Of a DNA stretch of 64,000 nt, positions 36,757 through 55,864 are shown piece after piece. Numbering within the stretch: the stretch's first letter is position 1; the number at the start of each line of letters is the position of its first letter. The notes beneath the pieces are model-generated. The model searched no databases. It saw nothing but the letters and a program-made list of their open reading frames with translations, and was not told the DNA's origin. This DNA is from Lama guanicoe (taxonomy: Eukaryota), in NCBI GenBank assembly GCA_013239625.1, contig MU053881.1, forward strand, positions 868,001 through 932,000, in the 5' to 3' direction. Position numbers and translations under genes: made by a program.

Positions 36757-38145
36757 TGGAGAAAACAGTCTCTTCAGCAAGTGGTGTTGGAAAAGCTGGG
36801 CAGCTGCATGTAAATCAGTGAAATTGGAACACTCCCTCGCATCATACACAGAAGTAAACTCAAAGTGGCTTAAAGATTTAAATATGACAGGACACCACAA
36901 AACTCTTAGAAGAGAATATAAACAAAACATTCTCTAACATAAATTGTAGCAGTATTTTCCTAAGTCAGTCTCCAAGGCAAAGAAATAAAAGCAAAAATGA
37001 ACAAATAGGACCTAAACAAACTGATAAGCTTTTGCCCAGCAAAGGAGACCATAAACAAAATGAATAGCCAACCTACAGAATGGGAGAAAATATTTGCAAA
37101 CGATGTGACCATCTTAATTTCCAAAATGTATAAACAACTCGTAGAATTCAATTACAGAAAGCCAAACAATCCAATCAAAAAGTGGGCAGAAGACCTAAAT
37201 AGACATTTCTCCAAAGAAAAGTTATAGATGGCCAATAGGCACATAAAAATGCTCAACGTTGCTAATTATTAGAGATATGCAAATCAAAACTACAATGAGA
37301 TGTCACCTCATACCAGTCAGAACGGCCATCATTAAAAAGTCTACAAATAACAAATGCTGGAGAGGATGTGGAGAAGAGGGAGCCCTTCTACGGGCTGTTG
37401 GTGGGGATGTAGCGTGGTGCAGCCACTATGGAGGACAGTGTGGAAGTTCCTTAAAAACCAAAAACAGAGTTACCATATGATCCAGCAATCCCACTCCTGG
37501 GCATATATCCAGAGAAAACTCTAATTTGAAAAGACACATGCACTCCAGTGTTCATAGCAGCACTGTTTATAATAGCCAAGACATGGAACCAACCTAATGT
37601 CTATTGACAGATGACCAGATAAAGAAGATGTAGTGCATATATACACAATGGAATACTACTCAGCCATAAAATGGATGAACTAATGCCATTTGCAGCAACA
37701 CGGATGGACCTGGAGATTATCATACTAAATGAAGTAAATCAGACAGATATCAAATGATATCACCTACATGTGGAATCTAAAAAAAATGATATGAATGAAC
37801 TTATTTACAAAACAGAATCTGACTCACAGACATAGAAAACAAAGTATAGTTACCAAAGGGGAAGAGGAGGGAAAGATAAATTAGGAGTTTGGGATTAGCA
37901 GATATACACTGCTATACATAAAATAGGTAAACAACAAGGATTTACTGTACAGCACAGGGAACTATATTCAATATCTTATAATAGCCTATAATGGAAAAGA
38001 ATATGAAAAAGAGTACATTCATACAAATATCTATGCATACGTGTGTGTGTGTATATATATATAAGTATATATATATATATGTAACTGAGTCACTTTGCTG
38101 TACACCTAAAACTAACACAACACTGTAAATCAACTATACTTCAAA
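36757..38145 (+). mobile_element. 5'-truncated L1 (ORF2 3' part plus 3' UTR plus poly-A)
   Basis: ORF 37259 ([33 protein letters not shown]) matches ORF2; TSD aaaaaaatccatcgtc (36741-36756) / aaaaaaatccattgtc (38146-38161). Confidence 0.93.
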
Positions 38146-38720
38146 AAAAAAATCCATTGTCACAAATGAACTCCCTTGTGCCACCTCTTTGTATCCATAC
38201 TCTCTCGCCCTGCCTCTGTCCCTTAGCAAATACTGTCCAAGCATGCAAGGGCTGGGTTGTGCACGAAGTGCATGTTTTGTTTTGTGAGAAACTGACAATT
38301 TTCCAGAGTGGCTGTACCATTTTACATTCTCACCAGCAATGGAAGAGGGATCCAATTTCTCTGCATTCTTGCTAGTATTTGGTATTATCACTTTTTTTTT
38401 TTATTATAGCTGTCTTAATAGGTGCATAGTGATCTCTCATTCTGGTTTTAGTTTGCATTTCCCTAATGGCTAATGGTGCTGAACATTTTTTTCATGCTCT
38501 TATTTGCCATCTCTGTCTTTGGTGAAATATCTATTCATATCTTTTGCCCATTTTGTAATTCAGCTGTTTTTTTTTTATTGTCAAGTTTGTGTGTGTGTGT
38601 GTATAGTGAAATATACATAACAATAACCAGTTAATGTTTCTTCTTTCTTTTGATTTTTTTTTGCAGTAGTTAAATTAATATACACCCAGAGTTATGTGGG
38701 TGTATGTTATGTGACATGTG

Positions 38721-38852
38721 ACATCAGGGATTAATTAGGGTAAGTGTTGGTAGCTATAATAAACAACTCCCAATTCTCAGTGACATGCCCACATCAGGGA
38801 TTAATTAGGGTAAGTGTTGGTAGCTATAATAAACAACTCCCAATTCTCAGTG
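38721..38852. repeat. Exact 62-bp direct duplication with 8-bp spacer, at the end of an old MLT1-type LTR fragment
   Basis: acatcagggattaattagggtaag...ccaattctcagtg at 38721-38782 and 38791-38852. Confidence 0.93.
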
Positions 38853-44600: not shown

Positions 44601-44910
44601 GACCTCCAGGCTGGGGAGCCTGAGGTGGGGCTCAGAGCTCTTACTCCTGTGGGAGAACTTCTGCGATATAATTATTCTCCAGTTTTGGGGTTGCTTACCG
44701 AGGGGGTATGTGATTTGATTATATTGCAAGTCCATCCCTCCTACCAATCTCATTGTGGGTCCTTCCTTATGTCTTTAGTTGTAGAAGATCTTTTCTGGTA
44801 GGTTCCGGTCTTCTTCATCAATGCTTGTTCCACAGTAAGTTGTGTTTTGGCGTGCTCGTGAGATGGGGTGAGCTTAGGGTCCTTCTACTCGGCCATTCTG
44901 GCTGACCCCT
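41697..44910 (-). mobile_element. Internally deleted L1: 5' UTR (about 44910-43860) joined to ORF2 linker/RT region (about 43860-41697)
   Basis: ORFs MDNLEEMDKFLERYNL...SPGPDGFTSEFYQTF and MMLYIENPK...[16 protein letters not shown]-rich 5' UTR starting (sense) ...cagaatggccgagtagaaggacc. Confidence 0.88.
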
Positions 44911-44990
44911 GCAGTCTGTATCTATTGAAAACAAATCTGCGCATAAGTAGACCAGCTCAATTCAAGCCCAGGTTGTTCAAGGGTTAGCTG
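44911..44990 (-). mobile_element. Tigger2-like (TcMar) terminal fragment
   Basis: Reverse complement cagctaacccttgaacaacctgggcttgaattgagctggtctacttatgcgc resembles the Tigger2 TIR; adjacent TA at 44991-44992. Confidence 0.7.
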
Positions 44991-53400: not shown

Positions 53401-53597
53401 AAACTGTCCAAGACAGCTGGCTACTGTCCAACCCTCCATTGGTCCTGTCAAATGATGAGACGTTGCCAACCCAATAAATTATCTTTCCTGAAAAGAGAAA
53501 CGAGGAAACATATATGCAACAAATATACTATAAAAATGTTGATATAAAAATACCATAAAATGCTTTATAGGGGCAAATAATGGAAAGTGATGAAGGA

Positions 53598-53771
53598 TAA
53601 AAAATAAATTTCTTCTGTACAGCACAGGAAACCATATTCAATATCTTGTAATAACCTTTAATGAAAAAGAATATGAAAACGAATATATGTGTGTGTGTGT
53701 GCATGCCTGGGACATTGTGCTGTACACCGGAAATTGACACATTGTAACCGACTATACTTCAATTTTTAAAA
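53598..53771 (+). mobile_element. Short L1 3' tail with perfect 14-bp TSD
   Basis: TSD aaagtgatgaagga at 53584-53597 and 53772-53785. Confidence 0.9.
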
Positions 53772-54568
53772 AAAGTGATGAAGGAAATGAAAAAAAGTCA
53801 CTATTTGCAATAGCCAAAAAGCATCCTGAAGTCAACCTAACAAAGAATGAACAGGTCTTTTCTGTAGAAAAATGGAAACCTCTGGCAAAGGACACAAAAG
53901 AAGATGTCACTAAATGGAGAGATTACTGTGTAAATGGGTGAGATTTCTTAATGTTACAAGGCTCTTGAGTCTCCTGCATTCACCCAGGCATTAAATGCAA
54001 TGCAGATCAAAATTTCAGCTGGAATTGTTGAGGAAATCAACATACTCATTGCAAAATGTGTATAGAAGGATCAAGGTATAAGAAGAGGTGAGCCAATCTT
54101 CCAACATTGCCCTGGACCAGATGTCACGGTGTATCATGGAGGCGGTGCTCCTGGTCATGGGAGAGCCTGGGATGTCAACAGCATGGAACAGAGAGCTTGA
54201 AACAGACCTGGTGTGCATAGGAATTTGGTACACAATACAGGTGGCACCACAGAGAAAGAGGGGAAAGGATGGGTTGCTCCGTGGATGAGGCTGGGAAGAC
54301 TGGCTCACTTTCAAACTGGATCTCAACTTCTACCCAGTATCCCAGGCGGTCTCTGGATGGATTGAAGGCTGGCAGATGGAAGGGGAGGCTTTAAAGCTAG
54401 CAGAAGTTTATGTAAGACAACATTTTTGAGACAGAGCTGTGGAAAGACTTCTTAAAAGTCACCACAATGCAAACCAGAGGTGAAAATTCATGCTTTTGGC
54501 TAAGTCAGAATTAGCTTTATCTGTCAGTGAAGAACTCCACAGCGCAAGCCAAAAGCGAGCAGACTGGG

Positions 54569-54894
54569 GAATGAGAGCGGGGCTTCAAGATGGCAGCACA
54601 GAAGGACGTGGAGCTCACCCTCTCCCGCAAATACATCCAAAATGCCTCGACCGTGCGGAGCAATTCTCACCGAATATCTACTAAACCTTGACAGAAGTTC
54701 TCGTACAATTGGAACTACAAAGCAAATCTTCACGAAACTTAATAGACAACAAGGTCCTACTGTATATCACAGGGAACGAATTCAATATTTGTAATAGCCT
54801 ATAATGAAAAATAACATGAACAGGAACATATATAACTGAACCACTATGGTGTACACCAGAAACTAACACATTGTATACTTCAATTGAAAAAAAA
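54569..54894 (+). mobile_element. Bipartite mini-L1: L1 5' end fused to L1 3' tail
   Basis: ttcaagatggc...agaaggacgtggagctcacc (L1 5' start), then gacaacaaggtcctactgtatatcacaggg...cttcaattg plus poly-A; TSD core gcagactggg at 54559-54568 and 54899-54908. Confidence 0.8.
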
Positions 54895-55864
54895 CACCGC
54901 AGACTGGGAGGGGACATTTGTAAGGCCTACGTTGCTAAGGGGTTACCTTTCCTAGCACAGGAAGGTCTCCTGCCAGTCAGTAAGAGAAAGACACGCAGCC
55001 CAGTGGAGAAATGGGAAAGGGGAGGAAGGGAATGTTCTTAGAAGGAGACGATGCCCCAGGGGCGAGCAGGTGTCCGAAGAGATTCAAACACACCAGAGGG
55101 CAAAGAAACACAAATTAAAGCAACAGCGAGATGCCGCTGGACCCCCAGCGGAGTGGCAACACTGAAAAGGCGGATGATACCACGTATCAGTGGGGATGTG
55201 TGCTGGGACGTCCAGGCACGGCTGGCTGGCGTGTGGAGAGATACAGCCGTGGTGGGACCACTGCACAGAATGTTGTGCACGTGCCTCTTGACCCAGGGAC
55301 GCCAGAGGAGCTTTCACAGGGGTGCCTGGGGGACACGCATAGCTCGGCTCATTATGGCACTGTCTCTGGCAGCAGCATCCTGGAGACAGGCTCCGGGTTC
55401 ACAGCCACGGGAATGTTACAGGTTGGATGTGGCAGGTGCAAACTGCTGTGCATGATGCAGCAGGGAGGAGCGCTGAATGAGCTGTTCATACAGTTCCAAG
55501 GAGAGAGTTCAAAAGTAGTGGTAAGAGAGGAAAGTAGGGATGGAGTGGCGTCCGTAGCCCAGTGCTGTTCATGTGAGGCAGCACGCGCATGGAGTTCCGC
55601 CATGCACACGCCAGAGGGAAGCCGGCATCCTCAAGGTCAGATCAGACATGTTAGAGAATGTGCCTGTGGAGGGGGGCAATGGGAGGGGGGATGGAAAGAA
55701 GGGAAAAATTAAGTGGAGTAAAATAAGTCAGGGGCTTGCACGCATCTATGTTAACGAAGCTGTGATCTGAGGAATGTGGCTTTAGCACGACTCTCTGAAG
55801 CTGAAGTTCAAATAAATAAGGGAATGAATAGGCAACCAAGTTCCAGGTTTCTAAAACAAGTAAA

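Follow-up and report, generated by a model that had tools for sequence, protein, structure and literature searches.

Positions 54569-54898 of the window (the whole 64,000-nt stretch of Lama guanicoe DNA that was analysed) hold a 330-nt insert, here called the mini-L1, in which two L1 ends are fused and both genes are missing. Our results indicate that this mini-L1 is a real, multi-locus L1 derivative that lacks ORFs and was probably produced by splicing. The DNA of the window is mammalian and contains many L1 fragments, and the features to which we refer are the following.

54559..54568, plus strand: 5' copy of the TSD, an exact repeat of 54899-54908 and possibly the core of an 18-nt TSD from 54551
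54569..54741, plus strand: L1 5' UTR head, 173 nt, ending at a putative splice donor; aligned end to end with 44912-44745(-) and covered by many other contigs
54586..54594, plus strand: putative YY1-type motif CAAGATGGC, assigned from sequence, with its core ATGGC conserved in the older L1 head
54740..54745, plus strand: head-tail junction, 54741/54742; the mini-L1 copy has TA at 54740-41, other contigs G and G
54742..54886, plus strand: last ~145 nt of an L1 3' UTR, 69-84% alike to L1 tails of the window and beginning right after the AG of unfused tails
54887..54894, plus strand: A8 remnant of a poly(A), assigned from sequence
54899..54908, plus strand: 3' copy of the TSD, an exact repeat, identical in 4/4 runs (pieces 54842-54958, 0 differences)
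44730..44912, minus strand: for comparison, an older and diverged L1 head carrying GGTAGG at 44745-44740

The hallmarks of L1 insertion are present at the mini-L1 in the form of an exact 10-bp TSD and the A8. The TSD sequence, GCAGACTGGG, was found exactly twice on the plus strand of the whole 64-kb window and not once on the minus strand, and a shared 10-mer between two random 30-nt zones 340 nt apart was obtained in 57 of 20,000 draws. AAAA lies 4 nt upstream of each TSD copy (54551-54554 and 54891-54894), and the original duplication may have been 18 nt long rather than 10 (14/18 letters alike). The endonuclease-type site was matched loosely only, as CC/AAAA if the TSD is taken as 18 nt. 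Close to the mini-L1, a short L1 tail that has lost its 5' part occupies ~53597-53782 and has a repeat of AAGTGATGAAGGA on both flanks, which is what an ordinary truncated insertion with a well-defined TSD looks like.

To identify the head, we compared it with an older L1 whose end lies at about 44910 on the minus strand, the match named in the original prediction. Under harsh scoring the match was marginal (39 against a shuffled maximum of 38), and under milder scoring the head aligned end to end with 44912-44745(-) at a score of 91, which none of 300 shuffles reached at each of three target lengths; the proposed match was thereby upheld. The older head was also the best match among 838 tiles of the window, scoring 95 against a mean of 51.6 (sd 7.3), with the next unrelated tile at 72, and a reverse transcriptase match follows downstream of it on the same strand (PF00078, E 9e-7, slightly below the curated cut-off). 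The motif CAAGATGGC at 54586-54594 is one that we take to be the YY1-type site of L1 5' ends, and its core ATGGC lies 152 nt from GGTAGG in the older L1, the same distance as from ATGGC to the junction in the mini-L1. Furthermore, about 50 other contigs per run cover the mini-L1 head and have a common variant at 54609, which shows that the head is a dispersed repeat.

The older L1 itself, at 44912-~43830 on the minus strand, consists of ~1.05 kb of 5' UTR-like sequence that leads directly into ORF2-like sequence at ~43855, which is presumably where ORF2 stands within this element. Judged from its sequence, it looks like an ORF1-less, internally deleted L1 that has lost ORF1 and most of the endonuclease region. 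A tandem repeat of ~70 nt units with 96% identity was seen at 38711-38852, within the old L1, and a tandem duplication of ~254 nt with 99.6% identity occupies 1925-2433 (1925-2178 and 2180-2433) and is either recent or an assembly artefact.

The tail was identified by comparison with other L1 3' tails in the window, to which positions 54743-54894 are 69-84% alike (E 4e-17 to 4e-5), and this homology starts at 54742/3. The prediction of an L1 5' head fused to an L1 3' tail inside one TSD was thus borne out, by the head alignment (0/300 shuffles) together with the tail likeness, and the length of ~320 bp given with it had to be corrected to 330 nt (54569-54898). The mini-L1 holds no ORF of more than 50 codons from ATG, its longest ATG frame being 50 codons, and like the ORF-less bipartite elements it is built from nothing but the two ends of a LINE. 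No tRNA, 5S or 7SL head was detected in it by Rfam at E values up to 1, where only a weak antisense match to mir-9235 appeared, and a SINE with a Pol III head was excluded, the head being L1 5' UTR. The mir-9235 match is full-length (54579-54647, minus strand; E 0.02-0.06); a microRNA call was dismissed at 22.6 bits against a cut-off of 95, and the match suggests that the mir-9235 family may itself derive from the antisense of an L1 head. Predicted RNA structure was no better than that of shuffles (z of 0.21 for the whole element, 1.26 for the head and 0.01 for the older L1 head), and secondary structure was dismissed as a feature of the mini-L1.

Next, we asked how the locus appears in related genomes. 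Of 24 runs, 20 (four organisms, eight studies) contain ~0.9 of the words of 53900-55600, and for the junction we used one run per organism (4 of the 20), with contigs aligned to 54509-54958 at 80% likeness. The four organisms are very close relatives, with ~0.9 of 31-mers in common, and are too close to date the insertion. In 4/4 runs an own-locus contig spanned 5' flank and junction and reached about 54820 with 1 difference, so an assembly artefact was dismissed, and in 4/4 runs a second own-locus contig covered the end of the tail, the second TSD and the flank with 0 differences; the hole between the two, at 54820-54842, has no evidential value. Neither an empty allele nor one with a full-length L1 was found at the locus in 4/4 runs of these four close relatives.

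The junction is not confined to this locus. At least 32 pieces are listed (15,599 more exist), of which 8 belong to the own locus, 8 cover the tail only and 16 are non-self and extend across 54741/54742. Those 16 pieces form at least five non-self signatures that are 80-86% alike to the mini-L1 copy, four of them without a gap at the junction.

54661-54777: 23 differences, 0 gaps, 4/4 runs, 81/36 letters either side of the junction
54661-54765: 19 differences, 0 gaps, 4/4 runs
54665-54763/6: 18 differences, 0 gaps, 4/4 runs
54608-54764: 27 differences, 1 gap at 54651, far from the junction, 1/4 runs
54713/5-54810: 13 differences, 6 gaps, register uncertain, 3/4 runs

Among the five listed, one signature has at least 31 letters on each side of the junction, the threshold applied (81/36), and the other four have 22-29 on the short side. 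The signatures occur at a depth of 9-16, and the own locus at a single-copy depth of 8.9-17.2. The flank bins of the mini-L1 show own-locus depth only, indicating that the signatures represent other insertion sites and not a regional duplication. At least 8 of the 18-23 differences fall at positions where the mini-L1 copy departs from most others; with that many explained by its own changes, the tail ends of the crossing pieces are not chance extensions. The count of signatures is a floor, the query being itself diverged. Joints for which the sequence between the two parts is not known (among them 54624 to 54742, 54639 to 54748 and 54738 to 54850) were excluded, and may come from diverged minis or from full-length L1s on one contig. 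The summed depth over 54659-54733 equals roughly 13-24 single-copy contigs (run X1, 80% limit, fused and unfused together), a figure not taken as copy number. We also observed, in one contig in 2/4 runs (X1 and X4), a joint from 54643 to 54791 in which a shorter head meets the tail further along, 9 letters lying between the two, showing that other head-tail breakpoints occur.

The sequence around the junction was then examined for splice sites. In 62-71 contigs per run, the alignment of an unfused tail stops exactly at 54742 and the unaligned end finishes in AAAATAG, in agreement with the expectation that the 3' part begins just after aaatAG. The window's own tail copy has AG at 37925-37926, matching the acceptor position, so that in unfused L1 tails an AG acceptor stands directly before the junction, as is looked for in a SpIRE. 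Other contigs have G at 54740 (9, 5, 3 and 6 contigs in the four runs) and G at 54741 (15, 12, 7 and 13, unfused tails included). On the donor side, GGTAGG occurs in the older L1 at the place homologous to the end of the mini-L1 head, with a register uncertain by one G and with the possibility that the parent subfamily differs. The alignment pairs TTGG of the older L1 with the last four letters of the head, a pairing under which the G of GT would fall within the exon, one base away from the canonical cut. The donor-like GTAGG that had been predicted at the end of the head was recovered in the older L1, and the GT of the parent subfamily was not.

Two details complicate this picture. The mini-L1 copy is itself mutated at its junction, with TA instead of GG before the join, and it has a G at 54745 that is explained equally well by a GTAG from the head and by a mutation in the tail. 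In addition, the 20 nt upstream of the acceptor AG, as found in the tail copy of the window, are only 45% pyrimidine and form no pyrimidine tract; by this measure the putative mini-L1 acceptor is a weak 3' splice site. The idea of a spliced product, also put forward originally, accordingly stands as regards the shared junction, the AG before the tail and the donor-like GGTAGG in the older L1, and not as regards a GT in the parent subfamily. Taking both sides of the junction together, we consider it likely, with good confidence, that splicing gave rise to the join.

Sequence collections without mammalian DNA were also searched. Scans of viral, metagenome and genome contigs with L1-head motifs for an unfused parent gave no hits, and the head-plus-tail fusion pattern gave none in metagenome contigs, both in collections that hold no mammalian DNA. 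A motif ending at the junction was found in no viral contig and at 8 bacterial loci in genome contigs; these were rejected as chance matches, none matching the mini-L1 over more than 30 nt. A blastn search of the mini-L1 against plasmids and phages, where again there is no mammalian DNA, returned nothing. The blanks in the viral, metagenome and genome collections thus reflect their lack of mammalian DNA and not absence of the family.

The reading that we lean towards, and hold to be reasonably probable, is that spliced L1 RNA was copied in trans and that most copies are old, ORF-less, SpIRE-like and independent dead ends. Full-length L1 RNA would sometimes be spliced between a 5' UTR donor at a depth of ~170 nt and an acceptor that precedes the 3' end by ~150 nt, the spliceosome removing the whole L1 body as a single GT-AG intron. 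Since no ORF is left in the mini-L1, we infer that the short polyadenylated product would borrow the ORF2p of other L1s in trans and be inserted by target-primed reverse transcription, in the manner of a processed pseudogene. Most copies would then be independent dead-end products of full-length parents. Copying of an RNA of ~330 nt would nearly always be complete, whereas full-length L1s are mostly 5'-truncated; even a rare splice would in this way make minis common among elements that have a head. Previous work showed that spliced L1 RNAs integrate with L1 hallmarks and that ORF1-defective ones can move in trans (PMC5860796). The cis-preference of L1, which makes ORF-less RNAs poor substrates, counts against copying in trans (PMC5860796).

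With respect to age, among the rows listed about 10 of the 81 positions in 54661-54741 set the mini-L1 copy apart from the majority of other contigs. At general neutral substitution rates, this divergence would correspond to tens of millions of years, and the mini-L1 copies appear to be old and may predate the camelid radiation.

We regard as rather unlikely a second explanation, in which splicing or deletion produced the mini-L1 on one or a few occasions and it then multiplied as a SINE-like non-autonomous family, transcribed from its retained L1 promoter start and mobilised with L1 ORF2p. The same junction at several loci would follow from it directly, the head retains the first ~170 nt and the YY1-type motif as against 97 nt in human SpIREs (PMC5860796), and two short deletions that set the tail apart from most tails could be family marks. 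However, the SpIREs of humans are dead ends that have lost promoter activity (PMC5860796), the RNA structure does not exceed that of shuffles (z 0.21), and copy number appears modest, going by the roughly 13-24 single-copy contigs, fused and unfused, at 54659-54733 in X1. Similarly, we think it doubtful that a splicing-born, promoter-bearing, gene-less L1 element of 330 nt went on to propagate from its own copies in a Pol II-driven, SINE-like fashion.

A third explanation invokes a template jump of the reverse transcriptase, or a microhomology deletion, between similar stretches of the 5' UTR and 3' UTR, either as a recurrent hotspot or as a single event that was then amplified. The older head and the tail are indeed alike around the cut (T.G and TA are shared), and the G at 54745 in the mini-L1 copy, the weak acceptor, the presence of the second junction (54643 to 54791) and the neighbouring old L1 that also lacks the ORF1 region all fit such an event. 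Nevertheless, the exact shared sequence at the cut amounts to only about 1 nt, the cut falls exactly after the AG of unfused tails and beside GTAGG of the head relative, and four signatures share one gap-free register where scatter would be expected, so that we consider this origin improbable. Finally, a full-length L1 that inserted at this locus and later lost its body by a locus-specific genomic deletion is very improbable, for even if an old deletion would be common to four organisms this close (~0.9 of 31-mers), gap-free copies of this junction stand at loci with other flanks, and the locus itself has the fused form in 4/4 runs. Both observations that the original prediction had named as fatal to it, a junction unique to this locus and lacking splice signals, and a full-length L1 at the orthologous locus, turned out otherwise: at least five other signatures cross the junction, and 4/4 runs of the very close relatives contain no such L1.

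If the preferred reading, spliced RNA copied in trans, is true, it carries spliced L1 retrocopies to an extreme, the loss of the entire coding body as a single intron, and it implies that ORF-less L1 RNAs have been mobilised in trans repeatedly in the mammalian germ line. The mini-L1 copies, which are presumably inert, would record an ancient L1 splice event and offer a natural yardstick for mobilisation in trans against that in cis. With them one could also ask whether splicing, and not deletion, can make a LINE the founder of a short non-autonomous family. If they were self-propagating, they would add L1, through elements made purely of its two ends, to the LINEs for which this class has been reported, namely RTE, Ingi, Vingi and R2 (PMC5786205). 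Annotation tools probably split mini-L1s into two L1 fragments, and such splitting would let them go unnoticed. We found no description of an ORF-less mini-L1 joining 5' UTR to 3' UTR in the literature covered, in which subscription journals are mostly not included, and the element may already be catalogued in Dfam or Repbase. The string 'splic' has 0 occurrences in the available main text of a camelid TE survey (PMC8605555), and camel, alpaca and artiodact have 0 in the available text of a survey of L1 chimeras (10.1101/2025.02.02.635956).

Among known systems, ORF-less bipartite LINEs are reported, in the available text of Kojima 2018, only for RTE, Ingi, Vingi and R2 (PMC5786205). The mini-L1 resembles the Bov-A, RIME, NARTc and Vingi-1_EE derivatives (PMC5786205), as well as SIDEs such as Persaeus (PMC6740152), in combining just the two ends of a LINE, in lacking any ORF and in having several copies, and it differs from the Bov-A/RIME/NARTc/Vingi-1_EE type in deriving from L1 (PMC5786205). 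Moreover, internal deletion is given as the origin of bipartite elements and SIDEs, which amplify as units, whereas the mini-L1 junction looks spliced (PMC5786205, PMC6740152). SIDEs are described as rare, and Persaeus shows a 5-bp microhomology, with 'splic' absent from the available text of that paper (PMC6740152). HAL1 is likewise an internally deleted, non-autonomous mammalian L1 derivative, but it retains ORF1, whereas the mini-L1 has no ORF of more than 50 codons (PMC5786205). SpORF2 shares the splice from an L1 5' UTR donor across ORF1, but its acceptor lies before ORF2, which is still translatable (Belancio et al. 2010, PMC2896524).

SpIREs of human L1 make up 131 of 6,609 full-length L1PA1-6 (about 2%); their splices stay within the 5' UTR or reach into ORF1, and ORF2 is retained (Larson et al. 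2018, PMC5860796). As in the mini-L1, a head is joined to downstream L1 at one recurring junction found at several loci, with a TSD and an A-tail for the insertion at this locus, and the donor, putative in the mini-L1, is situated in both within the initial 100-200 nt of the 5' UTR (PMC5860796). In contrast to SpIREs, the putative acceptor of the mini-L1 lies in the 3' UTR, both ORFs are gone, and the ~330-nt product is mobile only in trans (PMC5860796); with its join to the 3' UTR and no ORF left, it falls outside the described SpIRE classes. The mini-L1 works like a SpIRE, and is set apart from SpIREs by the position of its acceptor and by its ORF content.
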